Source of the DNA: an uncultured Elusimicrobia bacterium
Lineage (GTDB): Bacteria; Elusimicrobiota; Elusimicrobia; 2-01-FULL-59-12
Assembly: GCA_963702895.1 (NCBI GenBank)
Contig: OY969767.1
Location: 64,001-128,000 of the forward strand
Length of the DNA stretch: 64,000 bases
Direction of reading: 5' to 3'
Shown here piece by piece: positions 17,102 through 29,075 of this stretch (position 1 is the first letter of the stretch; every line of letters begins with the position of its first letter). The position numbers and the translations under genes were made by a program. The notes beneath the pieces were generated by a model. That model had not been told where the DNA came from. It was given only the letters and a program-made list of their open reading frames with translations, and made no database searches.

Positions 17102-17310
17102 TGTCACCCCGGCGGTTGTAAGCCGGGGTCTATCAACAGAGTGACAGACATGATGGATCCCGGGTCTCCACAAGACCGGCGACCCTCCGCCACACGACAG
17201 GCGGAGAGCTCCGCCACAAGGCAGGCGGACCAGCCTGTAGTGTGGCTGGGCCTGGTGGGTGGCGCTCGGCCCGCCGGGTGTGTGGAGGGCCGGCTTTCGC
17301 CGGGATGACA
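17102..17310. repeat. Nested composite REP-like element (family A with internal inserts)
   Basis: TGTCACCCCGG...CCGGGATGACA termini; internal GTCTCCACAAG...TGGAGGGCCGG module and TCCGCCA...GGCGGA hairpins. Confidence 0.8.
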
Positions 17311-18685: not shown

Positions 18686-18794
18686 TGTCATCCCCGAGGT
18701 CGTCATCGGGGATCCATCATACCAACGTCATACCGGCGGAAGCCGGTATCCATTATTGCCCATGATAGACCCCGGCTTTCGCCGGGGTGACGGC
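18686..18794. repeat. REP-like family A copy
   Basis: GTCATACCGGCGGAAGCCGGTATCCAT...GACCCCGGCTTTCGCCGGGGTGACGGC. Confidence 0.85.
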
Positions 18795-18797
18795 AAG

Positions 18798-20336
18798 TTA
18801 TTTACCAATACAAAACTGTGAAAACACTTGATCCAACAAATCTTCCGTCGTCGTTTGGCCAATGATCTCACCGAGAGCCGATAGAGCGCTTTGGAGCTCC
18901 AGCGCCACGCATTCCTCATGGGCGTCCTGCCGGGCGGCCTCGGCGGCCTGCGTGACGGCCGTCTGGGCGCGCTCGAGCGCCGAGGTGTGCCGCGCGTTCA
19001 AAAGCCACCGGGCCTCGCCGGCGGTCGCCCTTTCGGCGATCGCGCTGCGAACGATGGCGTCGATGAGATCCTCCAGCCCTGTTCCGGTCTTGGCGGACAA
19101 GGGGATCACCTCGCCTCCGCCGTTCATCGAGCGGAGCTTTTGAGCGGAGACACGCGAAGGCAGATCGCATTTGTTGAGGACCCACAGATGCGGTTTCCTG
19201 GCCGCTTCCACGATGACCTGCTCGTCTTCCGGGGTCCATTCTTCCGAGCCGTCAAAGAGGCCGATGACGATATCGGCGCTGTCCACCGACTGGCGCGTGC
19301 GCTCGATTCCCAGCTTCTCGACCGGGTCCTGGGCGCGGCGCCTCAGTCCCGCGGTGTCCGTCAAGACGACCGGAATCCCGCGGAGGTCGAGTGTCTCTTC
19401 CAGCGTGTCGCGCGTCGTGCCCGCGATGGGCGTGACGATGGCCCGTTCCTCTTTTAAAAGCGAATTCATGAGACTCGATTTGCCCACGTTGGGCCGTCCC
19501 AGGAGCGCGACGCGATAGCCTTCGCGCAGCACTTTGCCTATCCGCGAGGACGCCATGATTTGAGCGATCTCCTGTTGCAGGAACTGGCAGGTGGAAATCA
19601 GTTCTTCGCGCGGAAGAACACCATGGTCCTCCTCCGCGTGGTCCAGGCCCACCTCGATGCGGGCCAGAAGCGGCAGGAGCTTCTCGCGGAGGCCGCGGAC
19701 GCGCGCGGCGAGGCTCCCCCGCAGTTGAGCGAAAGCCGCGGCCTGGGATTTCTCCGTTTTGGCGGCGATGAGCTCGGCGACGGCTTCGGCCTGGGTGAGG
19801 TCCATCTTGCCGTTCAGGAAGGCGCGGGCGGTGAATTCTCCGGGTCCCGCGAGCCGTGCGCCGCCCGCGACGCAGAGCTTCAGGATCTTCCGCAGCGTCA
19901 AAGGACTTCCGTGGGCGGAGATCTCCACGACGTCCTCGCCGGTGTAGCTGTGCGGCGCCCGAAAAAGAGTGATCACAACCTGATCAACGTCAATGCCGTC
20001 ATCCCCCCCGGTTGTCCCCTTCCTGTTGTCATCCCCCCCGGTCGTAAGGGGGGGACCCATCACGTCTTGTTCGGCAACGATGGACCCCGGCTTTCGCCGG
20101 GGTGACGTCGTATCTTCGGGTATCATCCCCGGGGTGACGTCAGAGACGCTTCGGTCAAGAATCGTCCCAAAATAACACGTGTGGGAAGGAGCCGTAGAAA
20201 GATCGACTGGTTTTAGTGGAGAAAAAATGGATTTGGCGATCCCGAGCGCTGTTTGTCCGCTTACCCGGATCACGCCCAGCCCTCCTTCGCCGAGCGGTGT
20301 GGCGATCGCGGCGATGGTGTCTTCTGGAGCGATCAT
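18798..20336 (-). CDS. mnmE: tRNA modification GTPase MnmE with in-frame repeat insertion
   Basis: DTIAAIATP.G.GG, HSYTGEDVVEI, GRPNVGKSS, GTTRD, DTAGLR, NKCD, FCIGK. Confidence 0.97.
   Translation of the reverse strand: MIAPEDTIAAIATPLGEGGLGVIRVSGQTALGIAKSIFSPLKPVDLSTAPSHTCYFGTILDRSVSDVTPGMIPEDTTSPRRKPGSIVAEQDVMGPPLTTGGDDNRKGTTGGDDGIDVDQVVITLFRAPHSYTGEDVVEISAHGSPLTLRKILKLCVAGGARLAGPGEFTARAFLNGKMDLTQAEAVAELIAAKTEKSQAAAFAQLRGSLAARVRGLREKLLPLLARIEVGLDHAEEDHGVLPREELISTCQFLQQEIAQIMASSRIGKVLREGYRVALLGRPNVGKSSLMNSLLKEERAIVTPIAGTTRDTLEETLDLRGIPVVLTDTAGLRRRAQDPVEKLGIERTRQSVDSADIVIGLFDGSEEWTPEDEQVIVEAARKPHLWVLNKCDLPSRVSAQKLRSMNGGGEVIPLSAKTGTGLEDLIDAIVRSAIAERATAGEARWLLNARHTSALERAQTAVTQAAEAARQDAHEECVALELQSALSALGEIIGQTTTEDLLDQVFSQFCIGK
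19995..20140. repeat. REP-like family A copy inside mnmE
   Basis: GTCATCCCCCCCGGTCGTAAGGGGGGGACCCATC...GGACCCCGGCTTTCGCCGGGGTGAC. Confidence 0.85.
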
Positions 20337-24717: not shown

Positions 24718-26169
24718 ATGCCATTTGGCGACCTTGGCAAGAGAATGAATGATTATGTCTCAACCAAGACCATCCAATTCACAGGAGGCGGCGCTGAAGC
24801 CTACTGCAAGTTGGGGTCTCGCTACGAAGAGATGGGATGGAAACGGGAAGCTGAAGAAACCTACCTCCGGGCCATCGCGACCGATCCCCGGCATCCACTG
24901 GCCTATTCCAGACTGGCTCAAATAGCCTGGCGTCAAGGAGACGAAAGGAAAGCCTCTGATTCGGCCCGGAAGGCCATTGAGCTCGGGATCCAGGACCCTG
25001 CCCCTTACGCGACTCTGGGCCAGATCATGGAAAAACGCGGGGATGTGGGCGAGGCATGCGCGATTTATCGGCAATCCCTTGAACTCAAGACGCACCACGG
25101 CGAAGCGTTCCGGCTCATCGGCTTCCGTCTGGCGAACGCCGGATCCTTCGAGGCTGCCGTCCAAGCCTATCGCAAAGCCGTGCGTATTGACCCCGCGAAA
25201 GCCTCCGCGTACGGGATCCTCCCCGCCAATCAAGCCAAGCTGAAGGAGCATCCCGAAGCGGTGGAAGCCTTCCGGCAGGCGGTGAACAACAAACCGAGCT
25301 CCGACGCCTTCGCTATTTTGGGAAGCGCTTATGAAATCCTCGGGCGTCTACCGGAAGCCGTGGAAGCTTATGAGACGTCCCTGGCTCACAAAGAGCAGGA
25401 GGACGTAATGGGTGCCCGGTGGAACCTGGGTCAAAGACACCCCAGCAAAGAAGCGGTCCAGGCCCTCAAACATGCGATCCGACTGCGGCCGAATGACCCC
25501 AAGCTTTACTATCAATTGGGGCTCATGTATAGCGAGATGAATCTCCCGAGTAATGCCATGGAAGTTTTGCGCCATGCGACACGTTTGGATGCCCATCAGC
25601 CGTCCTATTGGCATTTGTTGGGGACGCTCGCGATGCGCGAGGGACGTTTCGAAGAGGCGTGGCAAGCTTGGCGGCATGCGGAACGCCTGGTGCCGAATGA
25701 TGTGATCGCCAAGAATAACCTGGGAGCGGTGTTTGGCCGCCTGGGTCGGTATAAAGAGGCGATCACCGTGTCTCTGGAAGCGCTCCGACTGCGCCCAACG
25801 GACTCCGATGCCTACAACAACCTGGGGGCCGCTTACGCCGGACTCAAGCAATATAAGGACGCTGAAAAAGCCTATCTCCGAGCGATCAAGCACAACCCTC
25901 AAGACCCCATCGTGTTCTGCAATCTGGGGGAGCTGTATAGTCTTCAGTACCATCACGACCGGGCCATTCAGCTCTACAAACAGGCGGTTCGACTCGATCA
26001 CCGAAACAAAGTGGCGCGTTATGAACTGGCGGTTCTCCTGGCCCGTACGGGAGAGACGAAAAAAGCCCAGGCGCAACTTGCCATGTTGCGGGAGCTCGAC
26101 AAATCGAAAGCTCTTGAGCTGGAAGCGGAATTGCGCCATATCACGGAACAAAATCCTCTGGGGGGTTAG
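24718..26169 (+). CDS. Tetratricopeptide repeat protein
   Basis: Multiple TPRs (AYNNLGAAY...EA...Y..A...P); SD GAGGAGG. Confidence 0.88.
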   Translation: MPFGDLGKRMNDYVSTKTIQFTGGGAEAYCKLGSRYEEMGWKREAEETYLRAIATDPRHPLAYSRLAQIAWRQGDERKASDSARKAIELGIQDPAPYATLGQIMEKRGDVGEACAIYRQSLELKTHHGEAFRLIGFRLANAGSFEAAVQAYRKAVRIDPAKASAYGILPANQAKLKEHPEAVEAFRQAVNNKPSSDAFAILGSAYEILGRLPEAVEAYETSLAHKEQEDVMGARWNLGQRHPSKEAVQALKHAIRLRPNDPKLYYQLGLMYSEMNLPSNAMEVLRHATRLDAHQPSYWHLLGTLAMREGRFEEAWQAWRHAERLVPNDVIAKNNLGAVFGRLGRYKEAITVSLEALRLRPTDSDAYNNLGAAYAGLKQYKDAEKAYLRAIKHNPQDPIVFCNLGELYSLQYHHDRAIQLYKQAVRLDHRNKVARYELAVLLARTGETKKAQAQLAMLRELDKSKALELEAELRHITEQNPLGG

Positions 26170-26185
26170 CCGTCAATCTGCATTT

Positions 26186-26297
26186 GTCGTCATCCCGGTG
26201 AAAACCGGGATCCAGTCCATCGTCGTTGAACTGGACCCCGGGTCTCCACAAGTCCGGCGACCCGGCCCGCCGGGCGTCTGGAGGGCCGGCTTTCGCC
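26186..26297. repeat. REP-like family A copy interrupted by IS110 (remainder at ~27545-27556)
   Basis: ...CCGGCTTTCGCC | IS | (C)GGGGTGACGGC reconstitutes the intact end seen at 18772-18794. Confidence 0.88.
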
Positions 26298-26310
26298 TAT
26301 TAGACTTTTC

Positions 26311-26482
26311 TCGAGTCTTTGTAGACTCTAGAAGAAGACACCGACAAGAATGGAATAAGTCTAACTTTCGCCAAGGTGAAAACCATACCCCGGTAAAGAC
26401 CCCATTCTTTCGTGATCCAAAGCTAGATAGAAGTGATGTCATAAAAACCCTTAATAGGCAAAGCTCGCATCACGAATGTCGG
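26311..26482 (+). ncRNA. Predicted IS110 bridge RNA
   Basis: 5' hairpin GAGTCT/AGACTC; basal stem CCGACA/TGTCGG; target loop with CTTTCGCC and ACCCCGG; donor loop with ATAGAAGT and TAATAGG. Confidence 0.82.
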
Positions 26483-26502
26483 CACTTACAAAAAGGAGCC
26501 TT

Positions 26503-27528
26503 ATGAACCCACCTCTCCATTACATAGGCGTTGATATCGCCGATCAAACCTTCAGCGCAACACATTACAGCTCAGCCGAACAAAAGTATTCCAAACATCA
26601 GACGCTCGCCAATACACCCGCCGGCTTTGAGGAATTCGAAGCCTGGTTTAAGAAACGCGGAGTCGATTCCACCAATACCGTGGTCTGCATGGAAGCCACC
26701 GGTGTTTATGCGGAGCAGCTCTGCTACTGGCTCTGTGCCAAAGGCTATCCGGTGTCGGTGGAGGCGCCGCATAAAACCAAACGCGCCTTTCACCCCCTGG
26801 GAGCCAAAAGCGACCCCATCGATAGCCGCCAGCTCGCCGAATATGCCTGGCGCTTTTTCGATCAACTCGCGTTCTGGAAACCCTCGGAAGCCTTGATCGA
26901 ACAAGTCCGTGTTCTTCTGACGACGCGCGAGCAGCTGACCGGCCAGATGACCGCCAATCAAAATGCCTTGTCGGCCATCAGCCGGAAAGTCGTTCGCACG
27001 ATCCTCGCCGAACAAAGCTTCCTGGACACCATCCGCCATCTCAAAGAACAGATCAAAAAAATCGATCAGGCCTTGGATCAACTGATCTCAAACCACCCCA
27101 CCATTGGCCCCATGGTGAGCTTGCTGCTCACCATCCCTGGGGTGGGCCGACTCTTGACGGCCCATTTGATGGTCATCAGCCAAGGCTTTACGCGATCCCT
27201 GGAACCCCGCCGCATCGCCTCGTATTTGGGCATGTGCCCACTCGAACACTCCAGCGGAACTTCCGTGCGCAAGAATGCAAGCTCTCGCGGGATCGGTCCG
27301 GACATCATCCGCAAGCTATTGCACCTGGCAGCCCGATCCCTTCGCACACATCATCAGCAGTTCAGGCACTACTTTGAAAGAAAAGTACAAGCCGGAAAAG
27401 CCAAACGCTTGGCGCTCAACAACATTGCCAACAAACTCTTGCGCATTATCTGTGCCGTACTGCGCACAAAGTCACCGTATCTTGCTGACTATAGGTCAGT
27501 CAATCCTCGGATCCTAAAAAATGCTTGA
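26503..27528 (+). CDS. IS110 family recombinase/transposase
   Basis: YIGVDIA (D), MEATG (E), KSDPID (D,D), TIPGVG, SSGTS (catalytic Ser region); SD AAGGAG. Confidence 0.95.
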   Translation: MNPPLHYIGVDIADQTFSATHYSSAEQKYSKHQTLANTPAGFEEFEAWFKKRGVDSTNTVVCMEATGVYAEQLCYWLCAKGYPVSVEAPHKTKRAFHPLGAKSDPIDSRQLAEYAWRFFDQLAFWKPSEALIEQVRVLLTTREQLTGQMTANQNALSAISRKVVRTILAEQSFLDTIRHLKEQIKKIDQALDQLISNHPTIGPMVSLLLTIPGVGRLLTAHLMVISQGFTRSLEPRRIASYLGMCPLEHSSGTSVRKNASSRGIGPDIIRKLLHLAARSLRTHHQQFRHYFERKVQAGKAKRLALNNIANKLLRIICAVLRTKSPYLADYRSVNPRILKNA

Positions 27529-27687
27529 CCGAGGTCATAGAAATCGGGGTGACGGCACAAAAAAGTGCATCGAGTTCAGACGATGAGGCAAAATGAACCG
27601 AAGATCTCCGGTTAGCTTCGGCCGCAGCAGGGGGCACTCATGAGGAGTCTCTTAGGCGCTGATTTTATCTACAAATAAAGTCAAAAT

Positions 27688-29075
27688 GAGTTCTTGTCAA
27701 ATGTACTGGAAATAGGGCAACGCCCCTTTCGTTGAATGTCTCTTAGGCCGCGACCTCCAGCTTCTCTCTTTCCACAAATAGTACTTCAACCAATTCCGGC
27801 TTTGCGATCGGCTTCCAGAACTGCGCTAAACGCTCAATGACCTTGTAGACGAATGCCACGCCTGTTCGGGATTTCTGGAACCGGCGCACGACTCGCGTCC
27901 GCAACCGCACTCCCGCGAAGACCGACTCAATCGGATTGCTCGTCTTCAAATGGACCCAGTGCTCCTTCGGAAAGTCGAAGTACCTCAGCAACGTGTCATG
28001 ATCCTTGCGCACACAAGCCGCAGCCTTCGGATAGCGAATTTCAAGATCCTCAGCCAACAAGGCCAACTGGTTCTCCGCGTCTTCGCGGCGCTCCGCCTGA
28101 TAGGCCACCCGCAGGCGATTGAGGACTTCATCCTGCTTAGCCTTCGGCACTTTATCCACGACGTTGCGCATCTTGTGCTTCCAACACCGTTGATCCTTCG
28201 CCGAGGGATACACCTCTGCCACCGCCTCCCAGAGCCCTCCGATCCCGTCGCCGATGACCAACAGCGGAGCAGGCATACCGCGCTCCGCGACCCCTCTCCA
28301 GATTTCCTTCCAGGAATCCCGGCTCTCCCGGTAGCCTTCCATCAGCGCGATCAGTTCCTTCTGGCCTTTCGCGTTGACGCCCACCAGAACCAGAAGCGCT
28401 GTGTTCTCTTTTTCCAGCCCCGCTTTTAAATACACGCCGTCTGCCCAGACATAGGCGTAACGCGTCTCCGATAGGTCCCGGCGACTGAACGTAGCCAGGT
28501 CCGACTGAAACTTCGCCGATAGACGCAGGATCGTGCTGGCTGATAAGGTGGCTCCATCCCCGATCAGTGCTCGCAACGCCGGCTCAAAGTCCCGACTCGA
28601 GAGTCCCTCCAGGTACAGCCGCCGGAATAACTCCTCGACCCCTTCCGTCCGCCGCTGGTAGGGCCGCAAGATGCTCGACTCAAACTCGCCTCCGTCCACC
28701 TGGGGCACCGATAGCTTCAGCCCCGCCCCCAACACCGTCACCTTCCGCTCCCGCGTTCCGTTCCGATAGCCTTTCTCCAGATTCTTCGCCCGTTCATAGC
28801 GCCGACGCTCTAAATACATCGTCACTTCTTCTTCCAGGGCCTCCACCAGCATCTTGCGCGCTCCTTCACGGGCCAGATAATCCACCATGCTCTCGCCTTT
28901 GTGCTGAGTCCCTTTCTCGTTTACAATGGTTTCCATAACGGCGTCTCCTTTTCGTTTATTGTCCGCTCGAACGGACAGGTTTGTGTGTTTCAACGAAAGG
29001 GTACGCCGTTTCTATTTCCTAAGGCAAATCCTTCCTTGCCTTAAAACCTATTTCCAGCACTTTTGATGGTAACTC
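27688..29075 (-). mobile_element. IS256-family insertion sequence (1,388 bp)
   Basis: Imperfect 29-bp TIRs (GAGTT....TCAAA.GT.CTGGAAATAGG, 23/29) and 8-bp TSD GTCAAAAT at 27680-27687 and 29076-29083. Confidence 0.92.
27743..28936 (-). CDS. IS256 family (Mutator-like) DDE transposase
   Basis: YRNG, YVWADGVY, LVIGDG, QRCWKHK.RN, KTSNPIES; SD AAGGAG before METIVNE. Confidence 0.95.
   Translation of the reverse strand: METIVNEKGTQHKGESMVDYLAREGARKMLVEALEEEVTMYLERRRYERAKNLEKGYRNGTRERKVTVLGAGLKLSVPQVDGGEFESSILRPYQRRTEGVEELFRRLYLEGLSSRDFEPALRALIGDGATLSASTILRLSAKFQSDLATFSRRDLSETRYAYVWADGVYLKAGLEKENTALLVLVGVNAKGQKELIALMEGYRESRDSWKEIWRGVAERGMPAPLLVIGDGIGGLWEAVAEVYPSAKDQRCWKHKMRNVVDKVPKAKQDEVLNRLRVAYQAERREDAENQLALLAEDLEIRYPKAAACVRKDHDTLLRYFDFPKEHWVHLKTSNPIESVFAGVRLRTRVVRRFQKSRTGVAFVYKVIERLAQFWKPIAKPELVEVLFVEREKLEVAA

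Follow-up and report, generated by a model that had tools for sequence, protein, structure and literature searches.

We found that the 1248 bp from 26298 to 27545 (plus strand, TATTAG...GAAATC) of a 64,000-nucleotide stretch of contig OY969767.1 from an uncultured Elusimicrobia bacterium (hereafter, the window) are very probably an autonomous insertion sequence (IS) of the IS110 group, which chooses its landing site by means of a bridge RNA that its left end encodes. Bridge RNA is known from IS621 of Escherichia coli, another member of the IS110 group (PMC11208160; PMC11208158; structures 8WT6-8WT9). The element in the window is a clean new example of the mechanism described in 2024, and not a new mechanism. 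From IS621 we infer its transcription, the circular form, binding of the RNA by the protein and current activity.

The genome, examined as one contig of 2.72 Mb, contains five copies of the IS, which are 100% identical over 1248 bp and have intact reading frames. All five copies have the same junctions, ...CTTTCGCC|TATTAG...GAAATC|GGGGTGACG, and are flanked by ...CCGGCTTTCGCC on the left and GGGGTGACG... on the right. As read from the window letters, the left junction is CTTTCGCC (26290-26297) followed by TATTAG (from 26298), and the right junction is ATAGAAATC (27537-27545) followed by GGGGT (from 27546), with the boundary ambiguous by one C. Scripted removal of the 1248 bp restored the exact 13-mer CTTTCGCCGGGGT at each of the five copies. 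An earlier note on this DNA, made from the letters alone, had named copies at unrelated sites as the observation that would speak against its reading; we looked for such copies, and five out of five lay in the same 13-mer. The flanking DNA provides the left target with the target-side core, CTTTCG+CC (26290..26297, same letters as the left target guide below), and the right target GGGGT (27546..27550), which lies within the 3' arm GCCGGGGT of a hairpin resembling a repetitive extragenic palindrome (REP). The element itself provides the right donor, TATTA, at its left end (26298..26302), which is read by the right donor guide and covaries with it in relatives, and the left donor with the donor-side core, ATAGAAA+TC, at its right end (27537..27545). 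These and all features described below are on the plus strand unless noted.

The start codon of the recombinase gene is preceded by 205 nt of the IS and its stop codon is followed by 17 nt, and the layout is thus that of the IS110 group and not of the IS1111 group. The 205-nt left end comprises a 5' hairpin (26306..26335, placed by folding and of differing length among relatives), a target-binding loop and a donor-binding loop. The target-binding module (26346..26409) has an outer stem AAGAATGG/CCATTCTT (26346-53/26402-09), an inner stem (26359-62/26397-400) and a tip hairpin, GGT-GAAA-ACC (26375-84). It carries the left target guide CTTTCGCC (26365..26372), which is in top-strand sense and would therefore pair with the bottom strand, and the right target guide ACCCCGG (26387-26393, reverse complement of CCGGGGT), which with the following U26394 spans 26387..26394. 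At all five copies the left target guide matches its flank in 8/8 bases and the right one in 7/7. The donor-binding module (26411..26474), with stems CGTGAT/ATCACG (26411-16/26469-74) and AGCT/AGCT (26421-24/26462-65), carries the left donor guide ATAGAAGT (26427..26434), facing the right end ATAGAAAT, and the right donor guide TAATAGG (26452-26458), which with the following C26459 spans 26452..26459. The latter guide pairs with TATTA in 5/5 positions and with the last core base, and sets a G against the donor T at the first core position. In IS621 the left guides are in top-strand sense and the right guides are reverse complements, core included (PMC11208160), and the four guides of the window element sit on the strands set by this rule. 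The junction, guide and stem strings named in the earlier note were each found where it had placed them, and its assignment of an IS110 recombinase with a four-guide RNA of the IS621 type agrees with this strand geometry.

To follow the RNA through the family, we used 80 metagenome loci encoding proteins at 44-59% identity to the recombinase; the close clade among them has common ends, T[AG]TTAGAC...ATAGAAAT-C. A covariance model of the two-loop region (R1; 11 sequences, structure set by hand) matched the window and 77 of the 80 loci, 78 places in all, each time on the plus strand and upstream of the recombinase gene. The 11 seed sequences among these match by construction, and the three unmatched loci have too little upstream DNA. 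Across its own genome, R1 matched at the five IS copies and nowhere else. The share of pairing cells was 91.5%, as compared with 72.6% in shuffles and 30-47% when partners were slid by 1-3 columns, and 29 out of 35 pairs had changes on both sides. Helix 1 of the model, which corresponds to CCGAC/GTCGG in the window (26341-45/26478-82) and encloses both loops, was absent from the earlier note's account; it has both-side changes at 8/8 pairs. In the window this closing helix and the basal donor helix were placed by hand from their complementarity, the latter in agreement with the CGTGAT/ATCACG stem that the earlier note had drawn. RNAalifold, applied to the 11-sequence alignment, recovered the target loop and not the donor loop. 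An Rfam scan of 25000-29000 gave no matches at E up to 1, meaning either that no curated family covers this RNA or that it is too distant from those that exist.

If the loops are guides, they should follow the flanks of each element, and such covariation, which the earlier note had proposed as a check, was indeed present among homologues. In the relatives, the left flank of an element reappears on the 5' side of its target loop, and the right junction reappears, as its reverse complement, on the 3' side. The mean longest exact match between 5' loop and left flank was 5.81 for an element's own flank and 3.66 for those of other elements (64 non-redundant); between the reverse complement of the 3' loop and the right junction it was 8.05 and 4.78, respectively (66 non-redundant). 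Of 10,000 label permutations for each side, none reached the observed mean on the left and none on the right. The left end of one locus (L020) was mis-set by the search pattern, an error that works against the covariation result. Examples of flanks followed in this way are GTCACCCC, CTTCTCTC, GTCATCCC and TTCG.TCCTC on the left, and TCGGCGA, TCTGCGG, TCGAATG, TTCAAGCT and TTCCCGAG on the right. The donor loop behaves alike: right donor guides track the left ends (TATTA/TAATA, TGTTA/TAACA, CATTA/TAATG), and the right ends ATAGAAAT, ATAGTATT and ATAGCATT match the donor loops of their own elements. Taken with the uniform junctions of the five copies and the 13-mer restored at each, these matches go beyond coincidence.

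Most of the relatives (L021, L023, L038, L053 and many others) land in ...GCTCCTC|GCAATGAC, another repeat-like target, common to many metagenomes. One relative with 56% protein identity (L019:522-1830) lands in GTCACCCC|GGCGAAAGCCGGGG, which is the reverse complement of the window target, cut at the same bond; the same type of hairpin is thus used there in the opposite orientation.

The sole long reading frame of the IS (26503..27528), preceded by a Shine-Dalgarno sequence AAGGAG (26493..26498) that is kept in relatives, encodes a recombinase of 341 amino acids. It consists of an N-terminal DEDD_Tnp_IS110 domain (PF01548, 5e-22, 78.7 bits) and a C-terminal Transposase_20 domain (PF02371, 7e-17, 62 bits), both scoring above the curated cut-offs. 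Residues 3-329 align end to end with the solved IS621 transposase (8WT6, E 3.5e-28); the second-best solved relative is the ISCro4 transposase (9T56, residues 2-329 aligned, E 1.7e-26). The IS621 active site, D11, E60, D102, D105 and S241 (PMC11208158), aligns to D11, E64, D104, D107 and S251 of the window protein, and an alignment of 50 homologues shows no variation at these D, E, D, D and Ser positions. The closest proteins to the recombinase are two, at 87% and 85% identity. A protein search of genome contigs gave one distant relative (30% identity), and only 1 of 400 other sampled genomes of the same phylum matched at E<=1e-20; close relatives were therefore not found among the genomes searched.

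By analogy with IS621, the element would leave as a circle, in which the joined right and left ends would build a promoter, TTGACC-18 nt-TAGACT. The proposed -35 element, TTGACC (27525..27530), overlaps the stop codon of the recombinase gene, and the proposed -10 element, TAGACT (26301..26306), lies just inside the left end, so the promoter would form only in the circle; the spacing is that of the junction joined in silico. Consistent with this proposal, TTGAC keeps a constant distance from the right-end tip across the family, irrespective of the stop codon. Moreover, 55 of 57 non-redundant in-silico joined ends passed a sigma-70 rule, as compared with 1 of 58 integrated left junctions, the most frequent joined-end promoter in the family being TTGACA-17-TAGACT. 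In the integrated copy a promoter scan predicted none. The junction promoter would drive an RNA of ~170 nt with the target-binding and donor-binding loops; if transcription starts ~7 nt past the -10 element, the RNA would hold just the inner part of the 5' hairpin. The donor loop guides AUAGAAGU and UAAUAGG would then act on the joined ends, and the DEDD/Ser recombinase would swap strands at the core. Contigs of four sequencing runs contained no joint, empty site or circle, at a coverage of 0.47 of the sampled words in one run and small shares in the others.

The cores at the two junctions are CC at the left (target side) and TC at the right (donor side), with the second base, C, common to both. 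Thus, the CC core proposed in the earlier note stands for the target side, while the donor side reads TC and shares one base with it. In IS621 the top strand is cut just 3' of the core, and, once the strands are exchanged, handshake bases lying 3' of the right guides pair with the opposite partner (PMC11208158). Top-strand cutting at this point predicts exactly what is seen in the window, that the left junction keeps CC and the right junction keeps TC. The candidate handshake bases also fit the published positions: U26394 is able to pair with donor A7, and C26459 with target G7, because of which TAATAGGC is the exact reverse complement of the left junction GCCTATTA. TAATAGG, which the earlier note had matched to the left end, fits the integrated left junction (CC+TATTA) and not the expected circle junction (TC+TATTA).

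The 13-mer target, CTTTCGCC|GGGGT, covers the loop together with the 3' arm of a REP-like hairpin, ACCCCGGC-TTTC-GCCGGGGT, which belongs to a REP-like repeat family scattered through the genome. The target is the commonest variant of this hairpin arm in the genome: CTTTCGCC is the most frequent 8-mer preceding GGGGTGAC (36/249). Genome-wide there are 42 perfect target sites, 5 filled and 37 free, and 58 one-mismatch sites. Insertions occupy 5/42 of the perfect sites and 0/58 of the one-mismatch sites (hypergeometric p about 0.011). In the window, the free targets that the earlier note had listed were confirmed, two exact ones at 18776..18788 (intergenic) and 20091..20103 (inside the mnmE reading frame), and one with a single mismatch (GGGAT) at 17294..17306.

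The suggestion in the earlier note that the repeat invades genes proved true for mnmE and nadB. Relative to solved MnmE, the product of mnmE (18798-20336, minus strand) is longer by ~53 residues, which lie between positions 43 and 116; residues 6-42 and 117-512 align to residues 8-47 and 69-462 of chain 3GEH. The in-frame insert (window 19989-20210) is built of REP-like repeats and contains the free target at 20091-20103. Beyond the window, nadB (L-aspartate oxidase; L097, G000:C1:1680084-1681856, minus strand) is longer by ~31 residues at a further free perfect target, with residues 10-173 and 210-566 aligning to residues 8-172 and 178-522 of chain 1CHU. Two of the 37 free perfect targets thus fall within conserved enzymes, and the element could therefore knock out housekeeping genes. 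Three more loci, with four free targets in long open frames, were considered, and placement inside the protein proper was not borne out for them. In the frames for a TPR protein, an M16-type peptidase and a GT4 glycosyltransferase, the free target lies upstream of the first matched domain, and a fourth such long frame matches no family. None of the five filled sites shows a broken known gene; at the copy at genome position 152301, a 230-codon open frame spans the restored site, and neither half of it matches any Pfam family. REP elements are moved elsewhere by the Y1 transposase family, and the one hit of a search for a RAYT-type gene (PF01797, Y1 transposase) scored 23.3 bits, right at the cut-off, in a frame of 89 aa at G000:C1:390719-390889.

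Several observations weigh against an RNA-guided element of the IS621 type or against the strength of the figures given for it. The unconstrained minimum-free-energy fold of the left end (-52.4 kcal/mol, z -3.26) pairs part of the guides and lies 6.6 kcal/mol below the homology-guided fold (-45.8 kcal/mol). It draws the donor loop otherwise than the earlier note did. The donor-loop tip hairpin has just 2 pairs (26438-39/26447-48), and the left donor guide matches at 7/8 positions with one G:T wobble, its next base, G, failing on the last core base C. R1 mis-registers two window helices, the closing and the basal donor one. The register of the left guide relative to the flank is off by one base between the window element and some relatives. 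Since the alignment (A4) was fitted to the model structure and the homologues are kin, the pair counts and the permutation figures overstate independence. A 221-nt contig from one sequencing run (X2), from a near-identical element of another metagenome, covers 26279-26462 with seven differences in 184 nt, five of which are consecutive (26364-26368) and turn the left guide CTTTCGCC into GAACCGCC, with the flank still reading CTTTCGCC. Either the guide of this copy changed once it had landed, or the contig is a chimera assembled across 66 identical bases; in the former case the guide would no longer fit its site. Finally, the donor TC and target CC differ at the first base, unlike CT in both partners of IS621, so the identical cores characteristic of the IS621 type are not found here.

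Six relatives with CC targets likewise show CC at the left junction and TC at the right, and TC on both sides is the rule in most of the family. Both right guides carry a G opposite the variable first core base, which can thus pair as G:C or G:T. We tentatively suggest, without holding it to be the likelier case, that this clade recombines partners with unequal cores, and that the X2 variant reflects block rewriting of guides. If true, the former would relax the identical-core rule drawn from IS621, and the latter would point to guides being rewritten in nature in blocks and not by slow point mutation.

The same data bear on other explanations of the locus. The element may be a genuine IS110 with a bridge RNA that is now a silent resident, its five copies stemming from one past burst. 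This would fit the integrated copy without a predicted promoter, the weak donor-loop tip hairpin and the imperfect pairing of the left donor guide, and resident IS621 loci are described as expressing the bridge RNA weakly and excising inefficiently (PMC13626964). Yet five copies identical over 1248 bp with intact frames, the retention of all catalytic residues and the perfect fit of the guides to the commonest repeat variant speak against it, and we regard a silent element as unlikely. Even less probable is that the left end is a mere 5' leader controlling translation of the recombinase, with the flank matches being copied target bases instead of a sign of RNA guidance. The RNA does lie directly upstream of a Shine-Dalgarno sequence and start codon, but the matches occur in two internal loops that lie 67-160 nt into the element, and on the strands of the IS621 rule. 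The loops, furthermore, change with the flanks in relatives while compensatory changes keep the stems, and the recombinase is homologous over its whole length to solved bridge recombinases.

The earlier note had described the system as programmed against the gene-invading repeat of its host, which would make the element an antagonist of the repeat or of the host, kept because it disables the repeat family. The position of the target repeat in frame inside mnmE and nadB and the fit of the guide to the commonest repeat variant are compatible with such a role. However, 5/42 perfect sites are occupied and no more, no known gene is disrupted and no benefit is apparent at any of the five filled sites, and the insertion leaves the repeat in place. 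REP targeting is, moreover, ordinary for the family (PMC11208160; 10.64898/2026.03.19.712850), REP-type hairpins being its usual landing site. Nothing in these observations points to antagonism, and we give it almost no credence. We therefore retain the reading of an autonomous, bridge RNA-guided IS of the IS110 group.

Comparison with IS621 shows what is shared and what is particular to the window element. Shared are the domain pair with the catalytic D-E-D-D and Ser; a left-end RNA in which a 5' hairpin is followed by target and donor loops, with the same strand senses of the guides; handshake bases that follow the right guides on their 3' side; a promoter with one part in the right end and the other in the left; and a REP hairpin as the landing site. 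Particular to the window element are a distantly related protein (E 3.5e-28), a core that reads CC on the target side and TC on the donor side where IS621 has CT in both partners, a G facing the variable base in each right guide, a last core base left unpaired by the left donor guide, a donor-loop tip hairpin that is nearly lost, and an additional helix enclosing the two loops. The pair of recombinase and bridge RNA, which the earlier note called new, is new solely as an uncharacterised orthologue; in any wider sense the claim was overstated. ISPpu10 and ISPpu9, IS110-family elements that insert into REP in Pseudomonas putida, resemble the window element in having several identical copies in one conserved repeat and a GC-rich stem-loop adjoining the guide-matched target bases (10.64898/2026.03.19.712850), a stem-loop reported for ISPpu10 as a second determinant of the target; they differ in the position of the crossover, which in the window IS is inside the 3' arm of the hairpin. 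The likeness to ISCro4 (9T56) is one of protein comparison. The IS1111 group has the same recombinase family and guide logic, but its seekRNA is downstream of the gene in a long right end, whereas the RNA of the window IS is upstream and its right end is 17 nt.

As to the mechanism itself, the element adds nothing beyond the 2024 description. Its value is that of a compact bridge recombinase (341 aa, RNA of ~170 nt), apparently recently active, whose guides are fully readable and for which the set of natural targets is known (42 perfect sites, 5 filled). The relatives make up a ready covariation table for guide design, and the unequal cores, together with the wobble-capable G, are natural data on the strictness of the core rule, which limits target choice in bridge editing.

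At 27743-28993 of the window, on the minus strand and 200 nt to the right of the IS, there is a gene for an IS256/Mutator-family transposase (PF00872, 2e-73). Genome-wide we counted 13 IS110-family recombinase genes: five belong to the copies studied, and the remaining eight fall into score groups of 3, 2 and 3 copies. One of the genes outside the five copies, at 671508, lies ~170 nt from a free target of the studied IS.

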